Source: an uncultured Chloroflexia bacterium (GTDB lineage Bacteria; Chloroflexota; Limnocylindria; Limnocylindrales; CSP1-4). From it: 64,000 bases of DNA. Position numbers and translations under genes: made by a program. Below the pieces are notes generated by a model. The model was not told the DNA's origin. It saw only the letters and a list, made by a program, of their open reading frames with translations, and made no database searches. The stretch is from contig CAVUWG010000003.1 of the NCBI GenBank assembly GCA_963745295.1, positions 541,047 through 605,046 on the forward strand. The letters run 5' to 3'. Below, in pieces: positions 1 to 34,145 of the stretch (position 1 is the stretch's first letter; every line of letters begins with the position of its first letter).

Positions 1-539
1 GCCGCTACGTGGCGACCCGTGGCCTGCAGGGTGTGGAGTTCCTTGGCCGCGTGACCGAGGTGGAGAAGGCCCAGCTCTACCGGACGGCGACGATCTTCGC
101 GACGCCCGCGACCGGCGGTGAATCGTTCGGGATCGTCCTGCTGGAAGCCATGGCCGCCGGAGCGCCGATCGTCGCCTCGGACATCCACGGCTACAAGGGC
201 GTGGTCCGTCGCGGACGAGAGGGCCTCCTGGTCCCGCCGCGCGATCCGAAGGCGCTGGCGATCGCGATCGCGCGGCTCCTCGACCAGCCCGACCTGCGAG
301 CGGAGATGAGCGCCAACGGCCGCCTTCGCGCCGAGGCGTTCAGCTGGCCCCGCGTGACGGCCAAGGTCGAGGAGTACTACGGCTTCGTCATCCGCCGGCT
401 CGCGACCGCCGGCCATCTCCCGGAGGGCTACCGGGCGCCGATCCCTCAGGCGCCCCCACTCCGGGCGAGGCCGTCGGCATCCTCGGCGACACCCGAGTCG
501 CGATCGACCAGCGAGAGTCTCCAGACCCAGGCGGAATAG
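1..539 (+). CDS. Glycosyltransferase family 1/4 (GT-B), C-terminal part; the 5' end lies outside the window
   Basis: ORF 9..539 stays open back to the window edge. The motif FGIVLLEAMAAGAPIVASDIHGY...E is typical of the nucleotide-sugar-binding C-domain of GT4 enzymes. Confidence 0.7.
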   Translation, partial: RYVATRGLQGVEFLGRVTEVEKAQLYRTATIFATPATGGESFGIVLLEAMAAGAPIVASDIHGYKGVVRRGREGLLVPPRDPKALAIAIARLLDQPDLRAEMSANGRLRAEAFSWPRVTAKVEEYYGFVIRRLATAGHLPEGYRAPIPQAPPLRARPSASSATPESRSTSESLQTQAE

Positions 540-3500
540 GCGACCACGAGACACGTCACGACGATCGCCACGATGAGCACGCCGAGCAACGGGGTCAGGA
601 TCGCCATCTCCGCGTTGCGGTCGATCTTGCTGACCGGGAACTGGAACGCGTACAGGTAGGTCGGGATGATGCCCTGGTACGCGTTCACGATGGCGCCCGG
701 CACGGGCAGCGCGGCGATGTTCGGATAGAGGACCACGAACCAGCCGACGACCGCCGCGAGGAACCCGACGACATAGCGACGCGGGTCGCGGCCGCCGACG
801 ACCCCGAGCGCGAGGTAGGCGAGCGGGAGGCCGGCGAGCAGGACGAGCGGCTCCACCGGGATGCTGGTCAGGGTCAGGATCGCGGTGTCGGGCAGCAGCG
901 AGACCGCCACGAACCCGAGCGCGACGGCCGCGCCGGTCAGGAGGATGGGGCGATAGCCGGCGCCCCCGGACCCAGGCGCATCCCGATCGCTCTCGGCGAG
1001 AGCCAGGACCGCCCGCACGAGGAAGAAGCAGCCGATGCCTGCCACGACCGCAAGGCCGGCGGTCCGGGCGGTCAGGACGAAGTCGGGGATGACGGCGGGG
1101 CACGCCTGCGACCCCGGGTTCACCGATTCGACGCCGACGAACCAGCACAGCGGACGCGAGAACAGCCACATCGCGGCCGGCAGGACGATGGCCGCGGCGC
1201 CGCCCAGACGGGCGAGCCGCCAGGTCGCGCGCGACGCCCCGTTCCAGAGCTCGGCCACGAAATAGGCCAGGGCCAGCACCACGAACGGGAGCGCCGTGTA
1301 GTAGTGGTACTGGAAGGCCGCCCGGTCGATGCGTGCCCACGGGATCCACTGGGCGGCGAAGCCGACCATGATCAAGGCCAGGGCCAGGCTGCGGCGACGG
1401 TAGGCCATGACGCTCACGAACAGGAGCGCGGGCACGCTCAGCCACCAGATCACGAGGTTGCCGGCGTCGTAGATGGCGGCCGACGTCCCGGCCCCGAGGC
1501 CCTCCTGGTAGAACCACACGGGCTTGAGGTTGAGCGGCCAGGCCCACCACGGCGACGCGGCGGGGTGTGGCGTCGTGAGGCCGTTGTGGTAGCGGTACAT
1601 CTGGCCGGTCAGGTCCGCGAGCGTCTGGCCGGTGTGGCCCGGCGGCCAGCCGGGGACCAGCTGATGGTTCTCGACCATCGCCCATGGGATGTACGAGACG
1701 ACGTAGATCGCGATCGGGAGCATCGCCAGACAGACGGCCATCCAGACGACCGGCAGGCCGAGGAACGTGCCCGGCCGCAACCAGCCCTCTGGAGGTGGCG
1801 CCGGCGGTTCCAGGCGGTAGGCCGGCTCGTCCGGTCTCGGCGGCGCGGCCAGCGGCCCGAAGCCCAGCCGCCCACCCAGCGTGAACGCCACCAGCACGGC
1901 CAGCGAACCGAGTCCGAGCAGGATGGCCATCCGCAGCGGCGTGAGCGCGAAGCCCCCGACGACCAGCTCGGTGTTGATCCGTCCGAGCGCGACCGAGCCG
2001 AAGAAGACGAGCGCGCCGAGGGCCGCGGGAGCGATCACGGCGAAGCGCATCTCCTCGTCGGTCCAGGCGATCGGGTGGAAGATGGCGACGACGACCGCGG
2101 TCAGCGTCAGGGCGAGCATCACGAGCAGGAACGTGAGGTTGCCGAAGCCCTGGCCCTCGGGCACGCTCATCGCCATGTAGCCGAGGACGCCGGTCAGCGC
2201 GATGAGCCCGAGGATCGCGACCACCCGCCCGAGTGCGCTCCGGACGAGGATCAGCAGCGCGATCCCGCCGATCGCGTAGAGCGCGACCCACTTGCTCGCC
2301 AGCGCGAGCCCGAGCAACGCGCCGATGAGCGGCATCCCCACCCAGAACGCCGCCCGTCCGCGCCACCAGCCCGTCCAGACGGCGGCGAAGACCGTGTAGG
2401 CCGCGACGATGAAGGTGCCGACGTAGATGTCGTTCATGCCGATCCGGGACTGGACGAAGAACATCCCGTCGGCGACGACGAAGACCGCGACGAGCCCAGC
2501 CACGAGGCGGCGCCGGAAGAGGATCCGCGCGAGCAGGTACAGGCAGGCGGCCGTCAGCGCCCCGAGGATGACGCCGGGCATCCGCCAGGCGAACGCGTGC
2601 GAGCCGAGTTCGATCGTCGAGAGGGCCCCGTCGGGATCGAAGACGAGGAGCTCCTGTCGGTCGGTCGAGGGGTAGTCGGCCTCGACGTCGGCCGCCCACG
2701 CGACCGGCGTGAACCCGTCGCCCAGGCGCGCGTCCGCGAAGACCGCACTGCCGTTCGACTCCCCGCTCCCGTGTGGCTCGACGACATAGACCGTCCACGG
2801 GCCGGCCGGGTCCGCACCCGCTGCCGGGATGGGCGCGTCCGGAGCGAGCCCGAGGATGTGGACCATCTGGCTCGCGTCGTCGTACACGACCTTCGTGCTC
2901 GGCCCCGGGAGGGGATGGCTGCCCCGGTCGACGGGGCCGTCCTTGGCGTCGTCGCCTCCGATCGCGAGGACATGGTAGGTGGGCGTCGTGGGGGGGCCGG
3001 CCGTGGCGAACAGCTTCGGGTCCTCCAGCCCGGTCACCTCGGCGAGGCCGTGGGCGCCGCCCTCCATCCCGATGGTGGAGATGACCTTGACGCCGGCCGG
3101 ATCGATGAACGTGACGCCGTCGCTGGTCGCGGCTGCGATCCGCGAGACGTCCTGGATCTCGATGCCGGGCAGGCGCCCATCGGCGATCGCCGTCTCGACC
3201 TTCGCGCGCGTCTCACTGGTGCCGGCGTTCCCGAGGATGACCGTCTCGTCGATCGAGGCGAGGTTCGCCTCGTACTCGGCGGCATCCCCGCCGAGCAGTT
3301 CGGCGAGCAGCGCGGCCTCGGCGGCGGTGTCCTGCAGCTCGTCGGTGTTCGCGACCAGCGTGGAGCCGTTGCCGCCGTCGGCGAGGTCCGCGAGGCCGGG
3401 CAGGTCGAGCCTGCCGGCCGATGTGCCGGTCACGAGGTCGAGGGCCTCGAGGTGGTCGCCCGACCCGACCATGACGGTCGTGCCGTCCTTCGTGACGTAC

Positions 3501-5836
3501 AACAGGTCCACGGCCGTGCCGACCTGGCCGAGGTGTGTGGGCGTGACGCCGGCCGCCGCGGCATCCGGGCCGACCGACGCGAGGCCGAGCGTGGCCACGC
3601 TGCCGTCGTCGAAGCCGGCCAGGAGCTGCTGGCCACTCGAGTCGAGCGCCAGCGCGCTGACGCCCGGTGCCGGGATCGTCGAGATCAGCTCGCGGTTGCG
3701 CAGGTCGTAGCTGCGGATCTCCGACCCGGTCGCGACGTGGAGGCGTTCGCCAGCGCGGCCGCCCGGCAGGGTCGCGTCATCGCGTCGGGGCTCGATGAGC
3801 GTCGCCCGCACGGGCACGCCGAGGTCGCTGGTGGCGCTCACGTCGTCCTCGCCCCAGGCCATGATGCCGAGCGCCATCGCGTACTTGGCCAGGTGGGGGT
3901 GGGTCCACTCGTAGATGTCGTGCGAGAGCCCATACCGCCAGTGCTGGAGGAACTCCGTGGCCGTCCGGGCGTGGTAGACCTCGTCGAAGTGCATCTGGTA
4001 GGGCTCGGGCAGCCGGAACGTCCGGAGCACCAGGCTCGCGACGACCAGGACGGCCAGGATCCACAGGTCCAGGCGGTCGAGGCGACCGCCGCGCTCGCCG
4101 CGCAATGCGGCGCTTCGATCCGGGCGGATGGGCCGCTCGCCAAGACGGTCGCGGAACCAGCCGATCACGCCGCTCTCGGTGATGCCGAGCGGCCTCGACC
4201 AGGTCGGCATCGTCGCGGCCGCGACCGCCGAACCGGACGCGACGGTGGCGACGCCCCCGGAGACGACGACGGACGGGGCGACGGCCGGGGCGACGAGGCC
4301 GACCGGCGCCATCGGGCCCGGCACAGCTGGGCGCTCGGCCGGAGGGGGGCCGCTGTCATCGTCGGCGACCAGTCCATCGATCTCGGGCTCGATCGAGGCA
4401 CGGTCCAGCTCATCGGCCAGCCGGTCGCGTGCGCCGGTCCGGAGCTGGAGCGCGCACCAGGCGAACCCCAGGGCGTGGAGCAGGACCACGAGGGTCACGC
4501 CCGCCTGCGAGCGGATCGCGGGGCCGATCCCCAGCCAGTCGCTGATCGATGGGTTGTCGGGGTACAACGTCGTGAGGACGACGTACATGTTCGCGAACGT
4601 CGCCACGCTCAGGATCACGTACGCGACTCGCCATCGCGGCGAGATGGCGGCGAGGATGACGCCGAGTGCGAAGAACGGGTAGCCGTACCGCTCGTGGACC
4701 CGGGTCGGGAGGATGAAGAACGCGAGCGCGAGCACCGCCAGCCCGACGAGGAGCGTGAGCCGGTCGGGTTCGCGAGCGACCGCCCACAGGACGATGAGGA
4801 ACGCTCCGACGAGCAGGGCGACCCCGATCGCGATGGCCGGGACGACGCCGAAGACGGCGCTCCCGGCCCCGCACTGCTCGGCGCCCAGGGCCGCGTCGCA
4901 GACCCACTGGCCGGTCGCGGCGAGGCCGGCGCCCGTGTCCGAGAGCACGAGCGCCCACGGGTTGTAGGCGTTGACGGTGAGGTACGGGTATCCCCCACCG
5001 GCGACGAAGATCTGCTCGATCAGCCCGATCGGCGTGAGCCCGAACGGGATCGACAGGACGATCGCGGTCGCGAAGCCGGCGATCGCGGTCGTCAGGACCC
5101 GGGCCGGGCGCCAGGGCCGCCCGTCGCCATCGCCATCGACCGGCGGCCAGAACGCGTGCCGGATCGTCACGACCGCGACCAGCGGGACCAGGATGCCGAG
5201 CTGGGGCTTGATGAGCGCCGCGATGACCGTGTAGACGGCCGCGCGCTCGGTCCGGCCGCGCCACAGCTCGCGCAGGCCCAGCAGCAGGAACACGACACCG
5301 AACGAGTCGACCTGGCCCCAGACGATGCTGTCGAACCAGCTGATCGGGTTGGCGACCGCGACGAACGCGGCCGCGAGCGCGAGACGGCGCCGGCCGCCGA
5401 GCTCGAGCACCATCGAATGGACCAGCCAGCCGACGGCGAGGTCGGCGATGAGCGGCGGGATCTTGATCAGGTCGCCGACGCCGCCAACGACCTTCCCGAC
5501 GAGCCCGACGAGCCACAGGACGTACAGGTAGCCGGGCGTGTAGTCGTGGAAGAAGTCCCGCTCGTAGAACCCCCACGGGCCATGGTCGGCGAGATCGGCC
5601 GCCCAGAACCGGAACGCGCTCAGGTCGACGCCGAAGCCGGATCCGGGGAGCAGGTATGCGATGATGAGGCGGAGGGCGAGCCCGAGCGCGAGGACGATCA
5701 CGACCGCGCCGACGGCCCCGCGCATCCCGGTCGACGACGACGGCGTTCGTGTGCCTCGCTCGGTCCCGCCGGATGCGGGGCGGGTCACCGGGAACGGCTC
5801 CTGCATGAGCGTGGAAGGTGGATCGGAGCGTAGCAC
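446..5836 (-). CDS. Giant 1796-aa multi-module GT-C membrane glycosyltransferase: ArnT/DUF2029-like N-module, Pro/Ala linker, PMT (GT39-like) module with DE motif (HFDEVYH), about 470-aa beta-propeller-like insertion, PMT C-terminal 4-TM-like module and further TM segments
   Basis: One continuous ORF with more than 30 hydrophobic helices. FFHDYTPGYLYVLW and HFDEVYHARTATEFL resemble GT-C loop-1 motifs. WFYQEG...AIYDAGNLVIWW resembles the PMT C-terminal module. The exact start is uncertain because the ORF overlaps the divergent neighbour by 18 nt. Confidence 0.75.
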   Translation of the reverse strand: MLRSDPPSTLMQEPFPVTRPASGGTERGTRTPSSSTGMRGAVGAVVIVLALGLALRLIIAYLLPGSGFGVDLSAFRFWAADLADHGPWGFYERDFFHDYTPGYLYVLWLVGLVGKVVGGVGDLIKIPPLIADLAVGWLVHSMVLELGGRRRLALAAAFVAVANPISWFDSIVWGQVDSFGVVFLLLGLRELWRGRTERAAVYTVIAALIKPQLGILVPLVAVVTIRHAFWPPVDGDGDGRPWRPARVLTTAIAGFATAIVLSIPFGLTPIGLIEQIFVAGGGYPYLTVNAYNPWALVLSDTGAGLAATGQWVCDAALGAEQCGAGSAVFGVVPAIAIGVALLVGAFLIVLWAVAREPDRLTLLVGLAVLALAFFILPTRVHERYGYPFFALGVILAAISPRWRVAYVILSVATFANMYVVLTTLYPDNPSISDWLGIGPAIRSQAGVTLVVLLHALGFAWCALQLRTGARDRLADELDRASIEPEIDGLVADDDSGPPPAERPAVPGPMAPVGLVAPAVAPSVVVSGGVATVASGSAVAAATMPTWSRPLGITESGVIGWFRDRLGERPIRPDRSAALRGERGGRLDRLDLWILAVLVVASLVLRTFRLPEPYQMHFDEVYHARTATEFLQHWRYGLSHDIYEWTHPHLAKYAMALGIMAWGEDDVSATSDLGVPVRATLIEPRRDDATLPGGRAGERLHVATGSEIRSYDLRNRELISTIPAPGVSALALDSSGQQLLAGFDDGSVATLGLASVGPDAAAAGVTPTHLGQVGTAVDLLYVTKDGTTVMVGSGDHLEALDLVTGTSAGRLDLPGLADLADGGNGSTLVANTDELQDTAAEAALLAELLGGDAAEYEANLASIDETVILGNAGTSETRAKVETAIADGRLPGIEIQDVSRIAAATSDGVTFIDPAGVKVISTIGMEGGAHGLAEVTGLEDPKLFATAGPPTTPTYHVLAIGGDDAKDGPVDRGSHPLPGPSTKVVYDDASQMVHILGLAPDAPIPAAGADPAGPWTVYVVEPHGSGESNGSAVFADARLGDGFTPVAWAADVEADYPSTDRQELLVFDPDGALSTIELGSHAFAWRMPGVILGALTAACLYLLARILFRRRLVAGLVAVFVVADGMFFVQSRIGMNDIYVGTFIVAAYTVFAAVWTGWWRGRAAFWVGMPLIGALLGLALASKWVALYAIGGIALLILVRSALGRVVAILGLIALTGVLGYMAMSVPEGQGFGNLTFLLVMLALTLTAVVVAIFHPIAWTDEEMRFAVIAPAALGALVFFGSVALGRINTELVVGGFALTPLRMAILLGLGSLAVLVAFTLGGRLGFGPLAAPPRPDEPAYRLEPPAPPPEGWLRPGTFLGLPVVWMAVCLAMLPIAIYVVSYIPWAMVENHQLVPGWPPGHTGQTLADLTGQMYRYHNGLTTPHPAASPWWAWPLNLKPVWFYQEGLGAGTSAAIYDAGNLVIWWLSVPALLFVSVMAYRRRSLALALIMVGFAAQWIPWARIDRAAFQYHYYTALPFVVLALAYFVAELWNGASRATWRLARLGGAAAIVLPAAMWLFSRPLCWFVGVESVNPGSQACPAVIPDFVLTARTAGLAVVAGIGCFFLVRAVLALAESDRDAPGSGGAGYRPILLTGAAVALGFVAVSLLPDTAILTLTSIPVEPLVLLAGLPLAYLALGVVGGRDPRRYVVGFLAAVVGWFVVLYPNIAALPVPGAIVNAYQGIIPTYLYAFQFPVSKIDRNAEMAILTPLLGVLIVAIVVTCLVVAYSAWVWRLSLVDRDSGVAEDADGLARSGGA

Positions 5837-7395
5837 AGGGTCGCCGGACGAGCCCCTCGGACCTGCTGCCGGTCATCGCCGTGGCGGTGGTCGCGTTCGT
5901 GGCCGCCCGGCTCGCCCTGCTGCCCGGCGTCGCGTTCTGGGACACGGGGGAGTTCCAGACCGTCGGACCGATCATGGGCACGGCGCATCCGACGGGCTTC
6001 CCGACCTACGTCCTGCTGGGCTGGCTCGCCTCGGTCGTCCTCCAGCCATTCGGCGACCCGGCGTTCCGGATGAACCTGTTGTCGGCGATCTGCCTGGCGG
6101 TCGCCGCCGGTGTCACGGTCGATCTGGTCCGGGCCCTGACCGGCTCGGTCGCGCTGGGGATGGTGGCCGGGCTCGGGCTCGCCCTCACGCCGATCGCGTG
6201 GGCCATCGGCACGCATGCCGAGGCGCACGCGCTGCACATCGCGCTCCTGGCGGTCCTGCTCCGACTGCTCGTCGCCTGGGAGGACCGTGCCCGCGGCCCC
6301 CGATCGGGCGATCACGCGGACCGCTACCTGGTCGGCGCGTCGGTCGTCTTCGCGTTGTCGGTCGGCAATCACTCGCTGACGCTCCTGCTGGCCGTGCCCG
6401 TCGGCCTGTTCGTGCTTGCCGTGGCCCCCGACATCTGGCGACGGCCCCGGCTCGTCATCGCGTGCGTGGCCGCGCTGGCGATCACGCTCGTCGTCGTCTA
6501 CCTGGAGCTGCCGCTGCGGGCCGGCCCGTTCCGGGCCGGGCTGGTCTATGGACGGCCGGAAACGTGGGAAGGTTTCTGGTACGTCGTGCTCGCGGAGCAG
6601 TTCCGCGGCAGCCTGCTCGACCCGTTCGGCGACCTGACGGGCAAGGTCGGGCAGCTCGCCACACTGACGTACCGGCAGTTCGGGCTCCTCGCGCCCCTGA
6701 TCCCGGTCGGTTTCGTGGCGACCGTCATGCGCCGGCCACGCTACGCCCTCCTCACCGGGTCGGCGCTCCTCATCACCTGCTTCTTCGCGGCCTCGTACGT
6801 CAACGCCGACATCAACCGCTACTACCTGGGGCCGATCCTCATCGCCTGGACGTGGCTCGCGATCCTGGCCGCCATGGTCGCCGAGGCGGTCGCCGCGAAC
6901 ATGGGTCTGGGGGTCCCGGCCGGAGCGGACGGCGACATGGCAGCCCGCGGCTCGGCCCGGGCCGCGCTGCCGGTGGCCCTGCTCGCCGCCCTGATGCTGG
7001 CCCCGACGCTCCTGGCCATCCCCAACCGCCTCGCAACGGTCGACGAGAGCCGCGACCGCCTCGCGGGCGCCTGGCTGGATCGCGTCCTGCCATTGCTGGA
7101 GCAGGACGCGGTCGTCGTCTCCTGGTGGAGCTACTCCACGCCGCTCTGGTACGCCCAGAAGGTCGAAGGTCGTCGGCCTGATATCTTCATCGCCGACGAC
7201 CGGACACGCCTCGACCTGGGCATGGGCGACCCGTCGGACGTCATCGACGCCAACCTTGGCCAGCGTCCCGTGTACGTGCTGCGCCAGAACCCGGCCGATA
7301 TCGACGAGCTCGCCCGCCGCTATGAGCTCGAGACCCTCACGTCACAGGAGGCAGGTTTGCTGGTCCGCGTGGTCGGCCCCCGAGCGGCGACATGA
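5818..7395 (+). CDS. DUF2723 (TMEM260-like, GT-C) membrane protein, candidate protein O-mannosyltransferase
   Basis: N-terminal WDTGEFQTVGPIMGTAHPTGFPTYVLLGW matches the DUF2723 signature. About 11 predicted TM helices. Divergent from the giant GT and translationally coupled to the downstream GT2 by an ATGA overlap. Confidence 0.65.
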   Translation: MDRSVAQGRRTSPSDLLPVIAVAVVAFVAARLALLPGVAFWDTGEFQTVGPIMGTAHPTGFPTYVLLGWLASVVLQPFGDPAFRMNLLSAICLAVAAGVTVDLVRALTGSVALGMVAGLGLALTPIAWAIGTHAEAHALHIALLAVLLRLLVAWEDRARGPRSGDHADRYLVGASVVFALSVGNHSLTLLLAVPVGLFVLAVAPDIWRRPRLVIACVAALAITLVVVYLELPLRAGPFRAGLVYGRPETWEGFWYVVLAEQFRGSLLDPFGDLTGKVGQLATLTYRQFGLLAPLIPVGFVATVMRRPRYALLTGSALLITCFFAASYVNADINRYYLGPILIAWTWLAILAAMVAEAVAANMGLGVPAGADGDMAARGSARAALPVALLAALMLAPTLLAIPNRLATVDESRDRLAGAWLDRVLPLLEQDAVVVSWWSYSTPLWYAQKVEGRRPDIFIADDRTRLDLGMGDPSDVIDANLGQRPVYVLRQNPADIDELARRYELETLTSQEAGLLVRVVGPRAAT

Positions 7396-8162
7396 CCCGG
7401 GTCGAACGACTGTCGTACTTCTTCCCGGCCCACAACGAGGAAGCCAACATCGAGGGTCTCGTGGCCGAGGCGCTCGCGACGCTGCCATCGCTCGCGGACC
7501 GCTTCGAGATCATCGCCGTCGACGACGGGTCGCGCGATGCCACCGGCCGCCTGGCCGACGAGCTCGCGGCGCGGCATCCGGACGTCGTCCGTGTCGTCCA
7601 CCACCCCACCAACCTCGGCTACGGCGCGGCCCTGCGGTCCGGCTTCACGGCCGCGCGCTACGACCTCATCGCGTTCACCGATGGCGATCGCCAGTTCAAG
7701 GTCGAGGACATCGGCCGACTGACCGCCCGCTCCGCCGAGCCGGACGCCCCGGACGTCGTCCTCGGATTCCGGATCCAACGGGCGGATCCGCCCATCCGGC
7801 TCGCCTATGCCCGGATCTACCGGCTCGCGAATCGGACCTTCTTCGACCTCCAGGCGACCGATGTCGATGGGGCCTGCAAGCTGTTCCGGCGAGCGGCCCT
7901 CGAGGATGTCCGCGTCGAATCGGATGGCGCGTTCTTCTCGGCCGAGCTCCTGATCAAGCTGCGCGAGGCCGGGCGCACCGTCGTCGAGGTCGGCGTGCCG
8001 CACTACCCGCGGACGGCCGGCTCGCCGACCGGGGCGCGGCCGTCGGTCATCCTGCGCGCCGTGCGCGACTTCTGGCGGCTGCGGCTGCATCTCTGGGTGA
8101 ACCGGCGACGGGCGCTGCGGCGCGGCGAACCCATCCTCGCCGACCGGCCGAGGGTCGACTAG
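7392..8162 (+). CDS. GT2 polyprenol-phosphate mannose synthase-like (Ppm1/DPM1-like) glycosyltransferase
   Basis: YFFPAHNEEANIEGLV...IIAVDDGSRD...TNLGYGAALRSGF...FTDGDRQF are GT2 motifs including DXD. Size is 256 aa. Confidence 0.75.
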   Translation: MTRVERLSYFFPAHNEEANIEGLVAEALATLPSLADRFEIIAVDDGSRDATGRLADELAARHPDVVRVVHHPTNLGYGAALRSGFTAARYDLIAFTDGDRQFKVEDIGRLTARSAEPDAPDVVLGFRIQRADPPIRLAYARIYRLANRTFFDLQATDVDGACKLFRRAALEDVRVESDGAFFSAELLIKLREAGRTVVEVGVPHYPRTAGSPTGARPSVILRAVRDFWRLRLHLWVNRRRALRRGEPILADRPRVD

Positions 8163-8719
8163 CTGGTCCGGCGGCCCTCGGCGTCGGGATCCACATCGAG
8201 CGAGTTGACGAAGTCGCGAAAGACGTCGAGCCGCGGGTCGACGATGGATTCACCGGTCGATTCGAGGGGCATCCCGGGCTCGCCCTCATCGTCGTCGAGG
8301 CCGCCGTCGGCGCCGAGTCCCGCCTGTTCCAGGACCGCGTCGGCGGCGAAGATCCGGACCCCGGCCCGGACCGCGAGGGCCAGCGCGTCCGACGGGCGGG
8401 CGTCGATCTCGACCGTGCCGCTCGCCCCCTCGAGGATCAGGCGGGCATGGAACGTCTCGTCGGCGAGCTCGGAGATGACGACACGATCGACGCGGACCCC
8501 GAGCTGTTCGAGCGTCGTCGCGAAGAGGTCGTGGGTGAGCGGGCGCTCCGGGGAGAGGCCCTGGAGCTTCATCGCGATCGCACTCGCCTCCCATGGGCCG
8601 ATCCAGATCGGGAGGTAGCGGTCGCGGTCGGTCTCCTTGAGGATCACCACGTGCCGACTCGACAGCATGTGGACCCGCACGCTCTCGACGACCATCTCCA
8701 CGAGCTCGGTCTCCGGCAT
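8159..8719 (-). CDS. Bifunctional-nuclease-like (DUF151/BFN) protein
   Basis: MPETELVEMVVESVRVHMLSSRHVVILKETDRDRYLPIWIGPWEASAIAMKLQG is the DUF151 core. The start was chosen at that Met; the ORF is open further up to 8797. Confidence 0.6.
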   Translation of the reverse strand: MPETELVEMVVESVRVHMLSSRHVVILKETDRDRYLPIWIGPWEASAIAMKLQGLSPERPLTHDLFATTLEQLGVRVDRVVISELADETFHARLILEGASGTVEIDARPSDALALAVRAGVRIFAADAVLEQAGLGADGGLDDDEGEPGMPLESTGESIVDPRLDVFRDFVNSLDVDPDAEGRRTS

Positions 8720-8726
8720 CGATCGA

Positions 8727-9449
8727 TTATCCCACGGCGGCCGGGGCCGGCGGCCTGCCCGGGCGGCCGGGGATGCCCGCCAGCACCCGCGCGACAAGGG
8801 CGCCCGCGACGAACCCGCCGATGTGGGCGAAGAACGCCACGCCGCCGCTCGTCTCGACCATGCCGATCGACGTGAGCCCGTCGATCAGCTGGAGGACGAA
8901 CCAGAACCCGAGCACGAGGACCGCCGGGACGTCGATGAGCTGGTAGAAGAAGCCGAGGAACACGAGCGACGTGATCCGCGCCCGCGGGAAGAAGACGAGG
9001 TAGGCGCCCAGGGCTGCGGCGATGGCGCCCGATGCCCCGAGGCACGGGATCGTCGAGGACGGCGCGACCGCCACCTGGGCGAGACCGGCCGCGACACCAC
9101 CCGCCAGGTAGAAGACGAGGAACCCGAGCCGCCCCATCCGGTCCTCGACGTTGTTCGCGAAGATCCACAGGTAGAGCATGTTGCCGAGCAGGTGCAGCCA
9201 GCCGGCATGCATGAACTGGCTCGTGATGAGCGTCGCGGTCTCCACGGACAGGAAGTCGCCGCGGCCCCAGGCGGCGGTCAGTTCGGCGGGCACCACGCCC
9301 CACTGCATCACGAACGCATCCAGCGCCGATTCGCCGCCGCTGGCCAGCAGCCCCAGCTCGTAGGCGAAGACCACGAAGCAGGCCACGACGATGCCGATGG
9401 TCACGACCGACGTGCGCCGGGTCGGGTTGGCGTCGCGCAGCGGGATCAC
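8727..9449 (-). CDS. Rhomboid family intramembrane serine protease
   Basis: Six TM helices. The GASGAI (GxSG) serine motif and the FAHIGGFVAG histidine motif are present. Confidence 0.8.
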   Translation of the reverse strand: MIPLRDANPTRRTSVVTIGIVVACFVVFAYELGLLASGGESALDAFVMQWGVVPAELTAAWGRGDFLSVETATLITSQFMHAGWLHLLGNMLYLWIFANNVEDRMGRLGFLVFYLAGGVAAGLAQVAVAPSSTIPCLGASGAIAAALGAYLVFFPRARITSLVFLGFFYQLIDVPAVLVLGFWFVLQLIDGLTSIGMVETSGGVAFFAHIGGFVAGALVARVLAGIPGRPGRPPAPAAVG

Positions 9450-9462
9450 TGCGGATCCTGCG

Positions 9463-10626
9463 TTACGGCTTCTTGGTCGGCTTGGCGGTGGTCTCGGCCG
9501 GGCTGGGCGACGCCGCGCCCGATGGCGCCGGCGAGACCGGCGCGGTGTCGGGGACGGCCTCGAGGAGCGTCTGGTGGAGCCCGTCCTTCGAGATCCACGT
9601 CAGCGTCGCGGGGACGTCCTCGACGGCCGGCGTGACCGCGATCGCGCGGATGTCCTCCCAGTCGGGGGCGTTGCCGGCCGGCCGGTACTGGGCCACGTAG
9701 TCGCCGCCCGTCTTCTCGATCGCGATGATCCGCCCGTTCGGCTTGTCGTAGACGTACACGACGCCCTCGCGCTGGTTCGGTCCACCGGCGATCTGCGAAT
9801 ACTTCGGGGCCGCCCGGATGAGCTCGTCACCGGGCATGTCCGCCTTCCAGCCATCGTCCTTGCCCGAGTGGAACCGCTCGAGCACGCCGTCCTCGAGCAC
9901 GAACAGGTCGCCGTCGATGAACAGGGCGGTCATCCCGTCGATCGGCCGGGCGGTGGCGAGCCAGGGGGTCGAGGCGATCGGGTAGCCGCCGCCGTCGGCC
10001 GCCGGCGAGTAGGCCCGGATCTGCTGTTCGGACGGGTCGACCGCGTACAGCTTGTACAGCCCGCGGCCCTGGTCCTGCAGGTAGGTCCCGATGGCCGTCA
10101 CGTCGTCGCCCCATGAGGCGGCGCCGTTGACCTTGATGCGCTTGAGCGTGCCCTTGCCGCTCGCGTTCGACGGGCGCCAGCGCCAGAGCGTGTTCTTCGA
10201 GTCGAGGATCAGGAGGTCGGAGCCGCCGACCGCCAGGAAGCGCGGCGTCGCGACGGTCGCGTTGTCGGCCTTCTGCCCGGAGCGCGCGACGGCCGTGGCC
10301 TTCTTGGACTTGAGGTCGACGCGGTAGACGGTCTTGGTCGAGCGATCCAGGACGTACGGCGCGCCGTCGGGTCCCTTGACCATGCCGCCCAGGTCGATCG
10401 GGTCGCCGCCTTCGGCCGGCGTGAACGTGAAGATCGTCGTCGAGGCGACCGGCACGACGCCGTACAGGCGGTCGAGGCCCGCCACCGCCTGCTTGCGGAG
10501 TGGTTCGATGACGGCGACGCTGACGCCGGACTCCTCGGCGGCGTCCAGTTGCTCGTACGCCTCGGTCAGGAGCTCCTTGGCCTGCCCGGGGTCGTCCACG
10601 ACGAGATCGACGCCGGGGGCCTTCAC
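9463..10626 (-). CDS. Hypothetical protein with beta-propeller-like repeats and a P/S/T-rich C-terminal tail
   Basis: 387-aa ORF with GTG start and good GC3 bias. The start overlaps the stop of the upstream gene (GTGA). No signal peptide. Confidence 0.5.
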   Translation of the reverse strand: MKAPGVDLVVDDPGQAKELLTEAYEQLDAAEESGVSVAVIEPLRKQAVAGLDRLYGVVPVASTTIFTFTPAEGGDPIDLGGMVKGPDGAPYVLDRSTKTVYRVDLKSKKATAVARSGQKADNATVATPRFLAVGGSDLLILDSKNTLWRWRPSNASGKGTLKRIKVNGAASWGDDVTAIGTYLQDQGRGLYKLYAVDPSEQQIRAYSPAADGGGYPIASTPWLATARPIDGMTALFIDGDLFVLEDGVLERFHSGKDDGWKADMPGDELIRAAPKYSQIAGGPNQREGVVYVYDKPNGRIIAIEKTGGDYVAQYRPAGNAPDWEDIRAIAVTPAVEDVPATLTWISKDGLHQTLLEAVPDTAPVSPAPSGAASPSPAETTAKPTKKP

Positions 10627-11726
10627 CTTGGCGAGGTTCTCGCGCGCCTTGTCGAGGGCCGTCCTGGCCGGTGTTGGCCGAGCTGGATGGCCGCCTGCTT
10701 GCCCTGGCCGCCGAAGACGTAGACCCCGAAGCCCAGCCCGGCGGCGACGACCAGCAGCGCAAGGACCGCGAGCGCGGCACGGCGCTGGGTCTGGCGGCGC
10801 GAGGCGAGGGGCGTGACCCTCCGGTAGGCGGGCTTCCGGCGAGGCAGGAGCTCCTGCACCCGGCCGACGACCTTCTCGATCGCGCCGCCGGCCGCGACCC
10901 GGGCACTGCCCGCGGCGGCGCTGACCGCGACGCCCGCGGCCTGGACGTTGTCGGCAAGCGGGATCGGCGAGCGGTCGGGGGCGCCGGCGAGCGGCTCGGC
11001 CGGCTTGACCGGCACGGGGGCGCGTCCGCGGGCCGTGGCCGACACCTCGCCCGCCTCGAAGGCGATGGCCCCATCGCTGCCGGCCCCGCCGTCCGCCACG
11101 AACCGGTGATGCAGGTGCTCCATGGCCGACTGCGGGTGCAACGTCAGCATCGCGTCCTTGAGCTCGTCCGGACCGAGCTTCGCCATGACATTGGGCGACA
11201 CCAGGACCAGCGAGTCACCGACCGAGACCTCACCGCGCCACACGTCCGGTTCGAGCTCGCCCGACGGCAGGCCGCGTTCCCGATGCGGATCGGGGAGGGT
11301 CGAGAGGCGCGCCTGGCGGATCAGGTAGGCCTCGGCCGGCCCGACGGTGGCCACGTACATCTCGTTGCCGCGAACCACGGCCACCGCCACCCCGATCGGC
11401 CCGTTCGCGTCGGTCGACTTGAGGCCCAGACGGTCGGCCTGGTGCGCGAGCCGCTTGTTCGCCGTGCCGATCGCCTTCTGGAGGCAGACGCGGATGCCGG
11501 CGGACTCGTCGTAGTAGTACTCGTTCCGGATCGTCTCGGCAGCGAGCCGCGTCGCCTCGAGGGCGTGCCGCGAACTGATGCGCGAGGTGACGAGCAGGTA
11601 GAGCAGGCCCTTGGAACGGGCGACCGACCCCACGTTGGGCTCGACGACGACAAGCGTGTCCGGCGAGTCCGGGAGGCGGTCATGTTCGGCGACGACGCCG
11701 AGTTTCATCTGGAGTCGGACGGCCAT
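10623..11726 (-). CDS. Membrane-anchored PP2C-fold (PstP-like) domain protein with the metal-binding Asp residues replaced; putative pseudophosphatase
   Basis: Colinear with the PP2C fold. The DGMGG, IGDSR and DN motif positions read TSRISS, VGPAE and SDG. One C-terminal TM helix (ALAVLALLVVAAGLGFGVYVF). Confidence 0.5.
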   Translation of the reverse strand: MAVRLQMKLGVVAEHDRLPDSPDTLVVVEPNVGSVARSKGLLYLLVTSRISSRHALEATRLAAETIRNEYYYDESAGIRVCLQKAIGTANKRLAHQADRLGLKSTDANGPIGVAVAVVRGNEMYVATVGPAEAYLIRQARLSTLPDPHRERGLPSGELEPDVWRGEVSVGDSLVLVSPNVMAKLGPDELKDAMLTLHPQSAMEHLHHRFVADGGAGSDGAIAFEAGEVSATARGRAPVPVKPAEPLAGAPDRSPIPLADNVQAAGVAVSAAAGSARVAAGGAIEKVVGRVQELLPRRKPAYRRVTPLASRRQTQRRAALAVLALLVVAAGLGFGVYVFGGQGKQAAIQLGQHRPGRPSTRRARTSPR

Positions 11727-27355: not shown

Positions 27356-30300
27356 TCAGGTCGCCAGGCCGGTCACCGGTGCTGTCGGCGTCGGCGGCTC
27401 ATCGGTCGTCGTTCGGCCGAAGCGCAGATAGAGGACCGGCACGAGGAACAGGTTCAGGAGTGTCGAGGTCACCAGGCCGCCAAGGATGACGATGGCCATC
27501 GGGTGCTCGATCTCGTGACCCGGCAGGTCGCCGGCGATGACGAGCGGGACGAGCGCGAGACCGGTGGCCAGCGCCGTCATGAGGATCGGTGACAGCCGCT
27601 CCCTGGCGCCCCGGATGATGAGCCCGACGCCCCACGGCTCACCCTCGAACCGCTCGAGATGCTGGTAGTGGTTGATGAGCATGATCCCGTTGCGGGCCGC
27701 GATCCCGAGGACGGTGAAGAACCCGACCAGCGACCCGAGCGAGATGACCCCACCGCCGAGGCTGGCCGCGAGAATCCCGCCGACGAGGGCCGATGGCAGG
27801 GCGACGAACGAGACGAGCGCGAGACGCGTGCTGCCGAATGCCGCCTGGAGCAACAGGAAGATGCCGATCGCCGCCCCGAGCGCGAAGAGCATCAGGCGAT
27901 CCGACGCCGCCTGCCGCTCGGCGAACTCGCCGATGCAGCTCCGGGTGGTACTCGAGCGGCCAGTCGATCGACGCGATGGCGGCCTCGACGTCGCTGACGA
28001 CGGCCCCGAGGTCACGGCCCTCGACATTCGCCCCGACGTCGATCCGGCGTGAACTGCCCTCGCGGTTGATCACGTTGGGGGTCGGCTTGATGCTGACGTC
28101 AGCGACGTCGTCGAGGCGCACCTGGCTCCCGTCGGGCGTGTCGAGGAGGATGCCGCGGATGCTTGAGAGGCTGTTGCGGACCTCCGGCGAGCCCCAGATC
28201 CGCACGTCGAAGATCTTGCCCTCGCGGTACGTGTCGTTGACCTCCTCGCTAGCGACCAGAGCCGACACGGCCCGCCGGACGTCACCGGGCTTGAGGCCGT
28301 GGCGCTCCGCTGCGGCGAGGTCCACCTGGATGTCGATCTGCGGGATCTCGGTCTGCAGCTGGACATGGAGATCGATGATCCCGGGGATCGCCTCCATGGC
28401 CTCCTCGAGCTCCTCGGCCTTGACGTGGAGCGTGTCGAGCTCCGGGCCGAAGATCCGGATCGTGATCGCCTCACTCGAGCCGGTGAGCACCTCGCGGATG
28501 CGTTCCTTGAGATAGGTCTGCACGTCGCGCTGGAGCCCCGGGTAGCCGTCGACGACCTCCTGGATGTGCGCCACGGTGTCCTCGTAGTCGACCGCCGGAT
28601 CGACGCTGACCCAGTTCTCGCCGAAGTACATGCCGACGACTTCGTCCGCAGCCAGTGCCTGCCCGATGTGGGCACCGAAGTTGCGCACGCCCGGGATCTC
28701 CCGCAGCTCCTTGCTCGCCTGGGTCGTGATGCGGACCATCTCCGGGTGCGAGGCGCTCGGGGTCGTCAGCCAATGCATGAGGAAGTCGCGTTCCTTGAAC
28801 GAGGGCAGCAGCGACTGGCCGAGACCGGGAAGGACCAGCGAGACCCGCAAGGACGACGGTCCCGGCGGCGGCCCACGCCGCGCGCGGCTGGGCGACGACC
28901 CGGGCCAGGATCCGGCTGTAGCGCGCCTGGAGCCATCGCACGAGGCTCGATTCGCGTCGCTCGATCGGAGCGTTGCGCAGCAGGATGAGGGCCAGCGCCG
29001 GTGTGACCGTCAAGGCGACGAGCATCGACGCCAGGACCGCCAGGCCGTATGAGATCGCCAGGGGTTGGAAGAATGCGCCCGACAGGCCGCCGATCATGAA
29101 CACGGGGATCAAGGCCACGACATCGATGAGCGTCGCGTACACGATCGCGCTGCGGACCTCCAGCGATGCCTCGAGGATCACCGTGTGGGTCGACTTCGGG
29201 ATCCCCTCGCGCCGTGCCTGGCGCAGGCGTCTCACGATGTTCTCGACATCGATGATGGCGTCGTCGACGACGACCCCGACGGCGATGACGAAGCCCGCGA
29301 GGACCATGGTGTTGAGCGTCGCACCACCCGCGGACAGCACGACGGCGGCCGCCATGAGCGAGAGCGGGATCGCGATGACGCTGATCAGGGCCGTCCGCCA
29401 GTCGAAGAGGAACAGGAGCAGGACGGCGACGACCAGCAGGACGCCGAGCAGCAGGGCATTGCTCAGGTTGCCGATCGCATCCTCGATGAACGTGGCCGGA
29501 CGGAAGATCGCGGCGTCGACCTCGATCCCCGGCAGCGCCGGCTCGAGGACCGCCAGCGCCTCCTCGACGCCACGCGTCACGTCCAGCGTGTTCGCCCATG
29601 GGAACTTCTCGACGATCAGCAGCAGGCCTTCGCCGTCGTTGATGACCGCATCGCCGATGAGGGGCTGATGCCCCACCACGACGTCCGCGACGTCGCCGAT
29701 CCTGGTCACCCGCGTGCCGTCCGCCTCGACCACGACCTCGCGGAGGTCCAGTTCGTCCGCCATCGGCTGGACGTGCGACACGGCCAATCGCTGGTTGGGC
29801 GTCTCGACGAACCCGCCGGTCCCCACCGACGCGCCGTTCGCGAATTTGAGTAGACCTGCATCGAGCGCATCGGCCGTCGCCGTCATCATCTGGTTGAGGG
29901 TCAGCCCGTTCGCGGCCAGCCGTTCGGGCTCCACATACACGTGCAACATGCGATTGCGCTGACCCCAGATCGCGACATTCGCGACGCCCGGGACCTCCAT
30001 GAGGCGCGGGCGGATCTTCCAGCGCGCCATCAATGACAGGTCGATGAGGTCCACCGTGTCGGACGACAACCCGATCTTCATCGTCCGGCTCGTCGCCGAG
30101 AGCGGCTGGATCATCACGGGCGGCGTGGTCCAGGACGGCAGCGTCGGGGCGACGGTGGCCAGCCGCTCCTGGATGAGCTGGCGCGCATCCAGGAGGTCCG
30201 TCCCGGGCTCGAGGATCATCACGATCGAGGAGAGCTGCGGGACGGACTTGGAGCGCATGACGTCGAGCCCCGGGAGGCCCTGGAGCGCCTGCTCCAGCGG

Positions 30301-30501
30301 GATCGTGACGAGTGATTCGATCTCCGACGTGGAGAGCCCCACCGAGGCCGTCTGGATCTCGACGCGGGGCGGCGCGAATTCGGGGAAGACGTCCACCGGC
30401 ATGTCGCGCACCTGGCCGATGCCGAAGAACATCAGCGCGGCCGCCATGCCCAGCACGATGAAGCGGAACCGCAGGCTCAAGCCCACGATCCGCCGCATCA
30501 T
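27356..30501 (-). pseudogene. RND efflux permease paralog disrupted by at least two single-base insertions (about 28860 and 27965)
   Basis: Three colinear fragments (ORFs 28471..30501, 27639..28850, 27356..28027) align end-to-end with the intact neighbour. Each successive fragment sits in the adjacent frame, consistent with +1 insertions. Confidence 0.7.
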
Positions 30502-30543: not shown

Positions 30544-31002
30544 TCAGTGACCGACTTCGAACTCGGCGCCGAACAGCTCGGCGACGCCGACGCTGACGAC
30601 GAGCGAGCCGGGGTCGGGACCGTCGGTGAGGACCGCGTAGTCCCCTGCCGGGTGGACCACGATGTCGCCCACGGTGATGGCCTGCCGGACGAAGACCAGG
30701 GGCCCGCCGTCTTCGACATATGCCCAAGCATCCCCTTGAGGATCGTAGAAGACCGACGAGTACGGGACCTGGGATCTCCCACTGGCACCGCTTGCGGAGG
30801 CGACCTCGACCGTCTCGATCCCGAGCCGCTCGGCTGCCCGCGGGGTCAGGGTGATCCTGTGGAGACCCTCCGTCCCCTCGATCGCCTCGACGGTGGCGGG
30901 CTTCTCTCCTTCGGTCGCGGTGTCGGCTGCCGGCGATCCGCAGCCGACGAGGACGAGGGCGAATGCGACCAGGGTGGTGGCGACGAGCGGACGGCGCATC
31001 AC
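30544..31002 (-). CDS. Lipoprotein resembling a minimal membrane-fusion (periplasmic adaptor) protein: beta-barrel and membrane-proximal domains only
   Basis: Lipobox LVGC. C-terminal VPYSSVFYDPQGDAWAYVEDGGPLVFVRQAITVGD...SVGVAELFGAEFE resembles the MFP C-terminal domains. ATGA overlap with the RND gene. Confidence 0.5.
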   Translation of the reverse strand: MMRRPLVATTLVAFALVLVGCGSPAADTATEGEKPATVEAIEGTEGLHRITLTPRAAERLGIETVEVASASGASGRSQVPYSSVFYDPQGDAWAYVEDGGPLVFVRQAITVGDIVVHPAGDYAVLTDGPDPGSLVVSVGVAELFGAEFEVGH

Positions 31003-34000: not shown

Positions 34001-34145
34001 GCACCTCGACGTACGGAGGTGAGTACTCCGGCAGCACGTCGAACGGGGCGCTGCGCAATTGCGCGACGCCGATGACCATCACCGCGATAGCGAATCCGAC
34101 AACCAGCAGCCGGAACCGCAGACCCCATCGGACGATGGCTTCCAT
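30999..34145 (-). CDS. RND family efflux transporter permease (HAE/HME-like), intact
   Basis: 1048 aa. Twelve TM helices and two large periplasmic loops typical of AcrB/CzcA-like pumps. Confidence 0.85.
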   Translation of the reverse strand: MEAIVRWGLRFRLLVVGFAIAVMVIGVAQLRSAPFDVLPEYSPPYVEVQTEALGLSAAEVEQFVTVPMEALLLSGVAWVETIRSESVPGLSSIVLVFEPGTDIMRGRQMVQERLTQAHILPRVSKPPQMIQPLSSASRAMIVSLASGSMSLTELSVHARWTVRPRLMGVPGVANVAIWGQRERQLQVLVDPARLHGRGVTLDEIVRTTGDALWVSPLSYLKASTPGAGGFIDTPNQRLGIRHVLPIRTPEDLARVPIEGRPNLRIGDVASVVEDHQPMIGDALTADGQALLLVIEKLPGENTLAVTRGVEDALAAMQLGLEGVTIDSSIYRPATFVEAAIANLALTLLLALLLVVVVLAAFLLQWRTVVIAVVAVTASLMTASLVLHAFGVAMNVMVVAGLVVALAVVLDDAIIDVDNAIRRLREPRTDDSSPSSADILVASVAEVRGPMLYATAIVLLVLLPVLAIEGVTGAFVQPFATAFALAVLASMVVGLTLTPALAVLLLGGIELQDQEPRVVSSLQRGYQDALAKTLKRPTPAFVVAGVLVIIGVVAIPQLASSLAPKFQERDLLVNVVGAPGTSQPAMNRVAAQATAELRAIPGIRRVGAHVGRAIMSDQIVSINSGQLWVSIDPAADYDATLSSVREVVAGYPGLQLAVDTYLSARAGDVENGPIDPVAVRIFGPDRAELRNQAEAVRTAVAAVPGVVSPRVLTTAEEPTIEVEVDLDAAFRYGVKPGDVRRAAATLISGLEVGNLFEEQKVFEVMVVGVPDLRHSLTSIEGLMIDRPSGDQVPLSSVADVRIVPSPVSIDRVGISRYVDVVAGVEGREVGAVQADVRAALQGVAFPMEYHPELSTAYGDAEANTYRMLGVLLAVAIGIFLLLQAAFASWRLAAVSMGVLPVALVGGVLATLLFGGELSLGSMIGFLAILAIAARNELALVSRLHLLERNGVAFGPTLVLRGARERLGPILMTALATGLAFLPILLLGERPGLELLRPMAIVVIGGLITSTLLNLFIIPAIYLGMRASPESEGVDLSVPQAAEPQPAGAQ

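Follow-up and report, generated by a model that had tools for sequence, protein, structure and literature searches.

The locus described here occupies the first 8,162 nucleotides of the window, a stretch of 64,000 nucleotides within an 898-kb metagenomic contig of a soil member of the Limnocylindria (Chloroflexota). This class is abundant in soil and freshwater and is uncultured. The locus carries the end of a gene for a PimA-like glycosyltransferase of family GT4, a gene for a very large three-part membrane protein of the GT-C type, a gene for a second GT-C protein of the DUF2723 family, homologous to the product of the human disease gene TMEM260, and a gene for a GT2 enzyme of the type that makes polyprenyl-phosphate sugars. 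We compared it with related genomes, all of them metagenome-assembled genomes of Limnocylindria/Limnocylindrales (Chloroflexota), 80 of which entered the synteny comparison. Its features, in window coordinates, are the following.

1..539, plus strand: 3' end (last ~178 codons) of the pimA-like GT4 gene; Pfam Glycos_transf_1, 3.1e-26 (window 3-539)
446..5788, minus strand: gene for the ~1780-residue three-part GT-C membrane protein; maximal open reading frame (ORF) to 5836, 1796 residues; G+C content at third codon positions (GC3) 0.94
449..2605, minus strand: transmembrane (TM) core of the PMT-like (GT39-like) module, with PMT_4TMC (Pfam) and an extra C-terminal TM extension
2606..3835, minus strand: seven-bladed beta-propeller of ~410 residues with a helical insert, in the first extracytoplasmic loop of the PMT-like module
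3971..3991, minus strand: HFDEVYH, the Asp-Glu (DE) motif of the PMT-like module, right after its first TM helix; invariant in 22 homologues
4316..5788, minus strand: N-terminal GT-C module of ~490 residues, ALG6/ALG3/PIG-M/PimE-like; first-outer-loop Asp (GSGF.VDL) and PTRVHERY invariant
5700..5845, both strands: near-invariant divergent block of ~150 nt over both start codons, from an alignment of 13 loci
5818..7395, plus strand: TMEM260/DUF2723-like GT-C gene, 525 residues; PF11028, 5.7e-24, 85.3 bits (cutoff 24.2)
7392..7395, plus strand: ATGA stop/start overlap of the DUF2723 and GT2 genes, read directly from the sequence
7392..8162, plus strand: GT2 gene, 256 residues, polyprenyl-phosphate-sugar synthase type, TM-less; PF00535 (Glycos_transf_2), 5.9e-28, 98.3 bits

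Long spurious ORFs are common in this window because its GC content is 65 to 75% (about 0.71 at the locus). A GC3 filter applied to positions 1 to 8162 leaves four ORFs, at 9-539 (plus), 446-5836 (minus), 5818-7395 (plus), and 7392-8162 (plus), and their GC3 of 0.87 to 0.94 against a background of 71% GC supports them as real genes. All four glycosyltransferase genes that a first-pass annotation had placed here are thus present, with the claimed families scoring above the Pfam gathering thresholds; profile hidden Markov models for PMT, PMT_4TMC, the TMEM260-like family PF11028, Glycos_transf_2, and Glycos_transf_1 all found matches. The annotation was right about the 1796-residue ORF at 446..5836 and gave no strand for it; the ORF lies on the minus strand, and its likely product has 1780 residues. 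This gene converges on the GT4 gene, their 3' ends sharing 94 nt at 446-539, and on its other side the DUF2723-GT2 pair is transcribed away from it. The origin, oriC, is close to the locus: dnaA, dnaN, rnpA, yidC, and gyrBA are all inside the window.

Public gene calls at the locus are wrong in both source assemblies, to judge from the gene tables of L001 (the record that includes this locus, in which positions are window positions plus 2609) and L082. The L001 table calls the 1780-residue gene as a 483-residue fragment plus a spurious 1078-residue ORF on the opposite strand, and the L082 table splits the DUF2723/GT2 region into short ORFs. The locus has therefore been hidden by automated annotation.

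The GT-C modules and the probable lipid-linked sugar synthase

The large protein is a fusion of two different GT-C modules, the second of which carries a beta-propeller in its catalytic loop. Together with the TMEM260-like protein, this brings the GT-C families at the locus to three, one more than the two that had been described. Translation likely starts at the GTG at 5788, because a GTG is present there in 19 of 19 loci (those recovered by searching with the conserved N-terminal motif), an AGGAG stands 9 nt before it, and indels of non-triplet length occur just upstream. More than 1,200 homologues of 1750 to 1860 residues, from Limnocylindrales/Chloroflexota, are named "phospholipid carrier-dependent glycosyltransferase" in public records; among the top 120 matches listed for the large protein, and likewise for the DUF2723 protein, only close Limnocylindria relatives appear, and cluster records for more distant fusion proteins carried no taxonomy.

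The nearest folds of the N-terminal module are ALG6, its top structural match, ALG3, GPI-MT-I, and PimE, and all of these relatives act on lipid-linked glycans. The module matches no Pfam family, and its sequence does not place it in ALG6/ALG8 (GT57), GT87 (PimE), or the PIG-M type; it has stand-alone homologues of 430 to 510 residues, some of which match Alg6_Alg8 or GT87 at ~1e-7. It is separated from the PMT-like module by an Arg-rich segment that would be consistent with a cytoplasmic linker.

Membership of the second module in the PMT/GT39 family is indicated by Pfam matches to PMT (PF02366, residues 1081-1198, 3.1e-10, 40.5 bits, cutoff 22.7) and PMT_4TMC (PF16192, residues 1407-1565, 3.6e-18, 66.2 bits, cutoff 32.4), and a profile search matched Pmt4 9e61. 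The DE motif expected in the first extracytoplasmic loop is there as well: the acidic pair of HFDEVYH is D581 and E582 in A1, and a weak match to the PMT profile (positions 3-59) falls on the same site. The propeller, which is WD40-like, is inserted after this motif. An AlphaFold2 model of residues 597-1796 had an overall pLDDT of 57, with the TM part below 50, and is reliable for the propeller only; it was not used for the PMT-like core. Against the NCBIfam equivalog for actinobacterial Pmt (NF058602), the protein scores 53.3 bits versus a cutoff of 800, with only its C-terminal part aligned. Judged by these scores, the large protein is PMT-like and is no orthologue of actinobacterial Pmt. 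The searched literature held nothing relevant on a propeller-bearing GT-C enzyme.

The DUF2723 protein combines the PF11028 match with homology to the TM domain of human TMEM260 and with a catalytic Asp in the first loop. Its residues 22-461 align to the human structure (9rql) at 4.6e-19, and its "fwDtGEf" is aligned with "ggDsGEl" of TMEM260, which identifies Asp42 (FWDTGEF, encoded at 5941-5943) as the putative catalytic residue. In the human enzyme D52 is essential, and the D52A mutant is inactive (PMC10214176). All three GT-C modules of the locus thereby keep an acidic residue in the first loop, namely the Asp of GSGF.VDL, the DE motif, and D42. At its C terminus human TMEM260 also carries a luminal TPR domain, which has been proposed to choose IPT-domain proteins as substrates (PMC10214176). 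The DUF2723 protein has no TPR match in Pfam; the alignment stops at about residue 461 and the protein ends at residue 525.

The ATGA overlap reported earlier between this gene and the GT2 gene is confirmed, with ATG at 7392-7394 and TGA at 7393-7395. The nearest characterized relatives of the GT2 place it among lipid-phosphate glycosyl synthases, the closest solved structures being ArnC (1e-12, 51 bits), Pyrococcus DPMS (1e-8, 38.5 bits), and GtrB (9e-8). Its best NCBIfam models are PpgS and ArnC, and all matches lie far below cutoff. Orthologues of 250 to 290 residues, 77 to 94% identical, make it the best conserved protein of the locus; public names of 120 of them are generic ("glycosyltransferase involved in cell wall biosynthesis"), and tblastn against plasmids returned "glycosyltransferase family 2" only. 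With no equivalog cutoff reached, ArnC nearer than DPMS, and only generic annotation, these comparisons do not assign the enzyme to the mannose-specific Ppm1/DPM1 branch, as had been done earlier; its TM-less form, on the other hand, resembles Ppm1 and DPM1.

The GT2 contains no hydrophobic 19-mer that could serve as a TM segment. The catalytic protein Ppm1 of Mycobacterium smegmatis is likewise TM-less, and its gene shares an operon with that of a membrane protein, Ppm2, which is its binding partner (PMC3485146). Because a TM-less synthase is here paired in the same way with a membrane protein of its operon, the GT2 is, by analogy, probably docked to the DUF2723 protein.

The ~150-nt block across the divergent starts, which recurs in L002-L036 and others, is near-invariant in 13 aligned genomes, while the flanking proteins are only 50 to 90% identical. 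Inside it, the large gene shows no third-position wobble over its first ~30 codons, and a possible extended -10 element (TGcTACGCT) is present; 33 of 82 loci have an exact 15-mer of the block at the junction. On this pattern, divergent promoters that overlap, or else an operator, are probably located here, and overlapping promoters would co-regulate both units. A scan for sigma-70 promoters and terminators was uninformative. A structured RNA was considered for the same block but not adopted, as there was no Rfam match and there were 0 compensatory pairs among 39 predicted pairs; a leader RNA is the less likely alternative.

Conservation and the neighboring inositol-lipid operon

The gene neighborhood is kept in relatives: across the 80 genomes the order is pat-PHP-pimA, then the large GT-C gene facing it, then the DUF2723 and GT2 genes reading away, down to ~50% identity. 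In 43 of 67 loci, again down to ~50% protein identity, the GT2 start that fits best is the one in a 4-nt overlap with the DUF2723 gene, and a reading of the junction sequences finds RTGA at the DUF2723 stop in about 64 of the 67. An additional gene heads this operon in 55 of the 80 loci. It encodes a 516-residue polytopic membrane protein with a weak GT87 match (0.014) and is represented by the following feature.

L044:8343-9893, plus strand: GT87-like gene between the large GT-C gene and the DUF2723 gene; present in 54 further loci, absent from the window

In 41 of 53 loci, a possible DUF2723 start lies in a 4-nt overlap with the stop of the GT87-like gene, and the successive overlaps of the GT87-like, DUF2723, and GT2 genes indicate a single operon. 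The remaining 25 loci, the window among them, do not have the GT87-like gene, which the lineage of the window has lost. The first ~20 residues of the DUF2723 protein in the window resemble the N terminus of the GT87-like gene product; this likeness suggests an in-frame deletion.

The GT4 gene at the edge of the window is the last gene of an ino1-patA-patA-PHP-pimA operon that lies mostly just to the left. The complete gene (L001:1903-3147) encodes 414 residues and starts 706 nt left of the window, and the genes upstream of it are on the same strand and abut. Residues 1-363 align to M. smegmatis PimA (2gej/4n9w) at 3e-62, the next GT4 family scoring 7e-21, and the protein keeps the GGV loop, EPRKG, GGESFGIVLxEAMAAG, and the E-x7-E region. 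By this similarity and its nucleotide-sugar motifs it belongs with PimA (GDP-Man:PI alpha-mannosyltransferase, where PI is phosphatidylinositol), and its association with PatA and inositol-lipid genes agrees with that placement. The PimA homology stops about 50 residues short of the GT4 stop codon. The two PatA-like proteins are of the Lip_A_acyltrans family, with PatA, the acyltransferase of phosphatidylinositol mannosides (PIMs), as their only relative in the Protein Data Bank, and further upstream is a gene for inositol-1-phosphate synthase (Inos-1-P_synth, PF01658). A gene for a PHP-family phosphatase (L001:1007-1906) lies between the PatA-like genes and pimA, downstream of ino1; its product is a candidate for the phosphatidylinositol-phosphate (PIP) phosphatase step.

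From 12000 to 64000, the window otherwise contains housekeeping genes: dnaA, dnaN, DciA, rnpA, yidD, yidC, VanW/PG_binding_4, Metallophos+CBM96, MFS, and Fur, as well as a CtpA-like S41 protease, ftsEX, prfB, DUF218, secA, prs, gyrA, gyrB, and PBP2. Neither additional glycosylation genes nor genes for GDP-mannose or a PI synthase turned up in this part. A 753-residue protein without a Pfam family (9463-11726, minus strand; L001:12072-14333) is encoded beside a rhomboid protease and a BFN-domain gene and is syntenic in 67 of the 80 loci; the GC3 filter gave two ORFs for it, so a frameshift or another start is possible. An AcrB/RND transporter on the minus strand appears to be split into 27356-28027 and 28471-30501, giving a 676-residue N-terminal piece (profile positions 2-540) and a 223-residue C-terminal piece (profile positions 849-1020) separated by a gap. 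The split reflects either a pseudogene or an indel in the assembly; at 30999-34145 the window has an intact paralogue of this RND transporter.

A proposed lipid-carrier relay and the rival explanations

We give about an even chance to a lipid-carrier relay in which the GT2 makes a polyprenyl-phosphate hexose, probably mannose, for three extracytoplasmic GT-C modules that elaborate a PI-anchored glycolipid and possibly O-mannosylate proteins. At the cytoplasmic face, the TM-less GT2 would load polyprenyl phosphate with a hexose, for which mannose taken from GDP-mannose is the most likely candidate, while being translated in tandem with, and probably docked to, the TMEM260-like membrane protein. 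A flippase, which the locus does not encode, would move the lipid-linked sugar across the membrane. At the outer face, it would be used by the TMEM260-like protein and by both modules of the large protein, the ALG6/PimE-like one and the PMT-like one with its propeller, joined in most relatives by the GT87-like protein as a fourth GT-C user. The product would most likely be a PI-anchored mannolipid or a lipomannan-like lipoglycan, since the locus abuts the ino1-patA-patA-PHP-pimA operon and has a conserved divergent control region; a possible second output is protein O-mannosylation by the PMT-like or TMEM260-like modules.

Mannose is our best guess for the sugar because of the PimA, PatA, and Ino1 neighbors, the PMT and TMEM260 precedents, and the TM-less, Ppm1-like form of the GT2. 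The PimA/PatA/Ino1 context is the sole sugar-specific evidence nearby, and it points to mannose and inositol lipids. A PI-anchored product leads among the acceptors because the relatives of the N-terminal module act on lipid-linked glycans and a PIM operon is adjacent. The earlier proposal of either envelope-protein O-mannosylation or glycolipid mannosylation therefore survives in part: the PIM context favors the glycolipid option at least as much as the protein option, and neither mannose nor a protein acceptor is given by the families themselves.

Every component of the locus is of a known kind, and its logic mirrors that of the actinobacterial PIM/lipomannan (LM), Ppm1-Pmt, and Gtr-type systems. 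The likeness to the mycobacterial and corynebacterial PIM-LM-lipoarabinomannan pathway (PimA, PatA, the polyprenyl-phosphate-mannose-dependent PimE, MptA/B/C, and Ppm1) begins with the PimA homologue next to PatA-like acyltransferases, as in mycobacteria, in which PatA (Rv2611c) and PimA (Rv2610c) have consecutive gene numbers (PMC12041525). It extends to a TM-less GT2 in an operon with a membrane protein, like M. smegmatis Ppm1 with Ppm2 (PMC3485146). The division of labor would also be shared, in that mycobacterial PimA and PatA act in the cytoplasm with GDP-mannose, and PimE and other GT-C enzymes then work in the periplasm with polyprenyl-phosphate mannose as the lipid donor (PMC12041525). 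There are several differences. The host belongs to the Chloroflexota and not to the Actinomycetota; the operon includes ino1 and a PHP phosphatase, and pgsA1 was not seen; the GT-C set consists of the ALG6-like/PMT-like fusion with its propeller, the TMEM260-like protein, and, in relatives, the GT87-like protein; and the GT2 has a GT-C enzyme as its membrane partner in place of the Lnt-like Ppm2.

Several observations weigh against the lipid-carrier relay. The sugar of the GT2 cannot be read from its sequence; the enzyme is slightly nearer to ArnC than to DPMS, and no source gives it a mannose name. The GT2 gene is missing at this position in about 10 of the 80 relatives. The best NCBIfam model of the PatA-like proteins is "phosphatidylinositol mannoside acyltransferase," at 128.8 bits, short of its cutoff of 209. 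Neither the window nor the 10 kb on its left showed a gene for a PI/PIP synthase, PimB, the GDP-mannose pathway, or a flippase. The pimA gene is convergent with the large GT-C gene, which leaves no co-transcription between them, and its position beside the GT-C genes may be historical adjacency. No PIM or lipomannan from Chloroflexota is reported in the searched literature, which also held nothing relevant on PimA or inositol lipids in Chloroflexota or on glycosylation in Limnocylindria. Finally, the DUF2723 protein has a weak NCBIfam match (3.3e-6) to the WsfD subfamily, whose namesake is a putative alpha-1,6-glucosyltransferase acting on a surface-layer (S-layer) glycan (PMC2943079). Given the WsfD precedent, neither mannose nor a protein acceptor follows from DUF2723 family membership.

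The locus could alternatively be dedicated to protein O-mannosylation, with the GT2 supplying polyprenyl-phosphate mannose, the PMT-like and TMEM260-like modules modifying secreted or envelope proteins, the propeller docking the substrate, and the PIM genes unrelated. The PMT and PMT_4TMC matches with their DE motif and the TMEM260 homology, catalytic Asp included, speak for it, as characterized PMT and TMEM260 enzymes are protein O-mannosyltransferases (PMC10214176), and a WD40-like propeller in the catalytic loop might play a role comparable to that of the substrate-binding MIR and TPR domains of eukaryotic O-mannosyltransferases. The pairing also recalls actinobacterial Ppm1 with Pmt (GT39), where PMT/PMT_4TMC domains and a loop-1 DE motif go with a lipid-sugar-synthase-type GT2 close by. 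However, the large protein reaches only 53 of the 800 bits set for the Pmt equivalog, carries a ~410-residue propeller after the DE motif, and has its PMT-like module fused to a second GT-C module and extended by extra C-terminal TM helices. The DUF2723 protein shares the homologous TM GT-C domain and the aligned D-x-G-E of TMEM260, the O-mannosyltransferase for IPT domains, but it is a bacterial protein translationally coupled to a GT2, has 525 residues versus 707, and is without the C-terminal TPR domain proposed for protein recognition (PMC10214176). Moreover, the N-terminal module resembles only enzymes that act on lipid-linked glycans, PimA, PatA, and Ino1 genes are directly adjacent, and WsfD, the bacterial match of the DUF2723 protein, has been assigned a glycan acceptor (PMC2943079). 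We therefore regard a dedicated protein O-mannosylation system as unlikely. We think a second alternative about equally unlikely, in which polyprenyl-phosphate glucose, -GlcNAc, -GalNAc, or -arabinose is the donor and the GT-C enzymes decorate a wall polysaccharide, an S-layer glycan, or a teichoic-acid-like polymer, as a Gtr- or WsfH-WsfD-type side-chain modification. A GT2 lipid-sugar synthase and a GT-C enzyme in one operon are the general architecture of such systems, GtrA/GtrB/GtrC, ArnC/ArnT, and Paenibacillus WsfH/WsfD among them. The best NCBIfam matches of the GT2 are PpgS (GalNAc) and ArnC, its best solved relative is ArnC, and ALG6, the top structural match of the N-terminal module, is a glucosyltransferase. 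The weak match of the DUF2723 protein fits here too, WsfH and WsfD being reported to add branching glucose (PMC2943079). These matches all lie far below family cutoffs, however, and differ little from the DPMS match, and the GT2 is TM-less like Ppm1/DPM1 (PMC3485146) and unlike synthases of the GtrB, ArnC, and CsbB types, which have C-terminal TM helices. Several GT-C modules would share one synthase, no small GtrA-like flippase ORF was found in 1-9000 or in the locus gene tables, no polysaccharide export genes are nearby, and the neighbors point to mannose and inositol lipids and not to O-antigen or S-layer glycan, PimA, the only sugar-specific one, being mannose-specific.

Less probable than either, in our view, is that there is no single system and that independent housekeeping envelope glycosyltransferases are held together by frozen synteny near the origin. 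Most of the 80 loci also agree in the order of the genes for BFN, rhomboid, the 753-residue protein, DciA, dnaN, and dnaA, so that the whole oriC-proximal region is syntenic, unrelated genes included, and adjacency alone is weak evidence. The variable presence of the GT2 and GT87-like genes and the convergent or divergent transcription units would fit this explanation as well. Set against it are the 4-nt overlaps that chain the GT87-like, DUF2723, and GT2 genes into one operon, the near-invariant divergent block, which suggests common control, and the functional coherence that four GT-C modules and one lipid-sugar synthase beside a PIM-initiation operon would have. The description of the locus as a dedicated compact system was nonetheless overstated, considering the synteny of the whole region, the relatives that lack the GT2 here, and the lack of a flippase in the locus.

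PI-mannolipids and lipomannan are treated as a hallmark of the Actinomycetota. We suggest, tentatively and at less than even chances, that Limnocylindria make PI-anchored mannolipids or a lipomannan-like lipoglycan through a set of enzymes not described before: a 1780-residue fusion of ALG6/PimE-like and PMT-like modules around a periplasmic seven-bladed propeller, and a TMEM260 homologue that docks a TM-less polyprenyl-phosphate-mannose synthase. We did not find in the searched literature this phylum as a host, a propeller-bearing dual GT-C fusion, the coupling of a TMEM260-like protein with a GT2, or the inositol operon context. If the sugar is not mannose, the locus would be another Gtr-like modification system. 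If the proposal is true, the biosynthesis of inositol mannolipids and lipoglycans would reach beyond the Actinomycetota into the Limnocylindria, and an enzyme that unites two GT-C modules, with a propeller in a catalytic loop, would have been described. It would also provide the first functional hypothesis for the bacterial homologues of TMEM260, as GT-C enzymes that work with, and possibly anchor, their own donor synthase.

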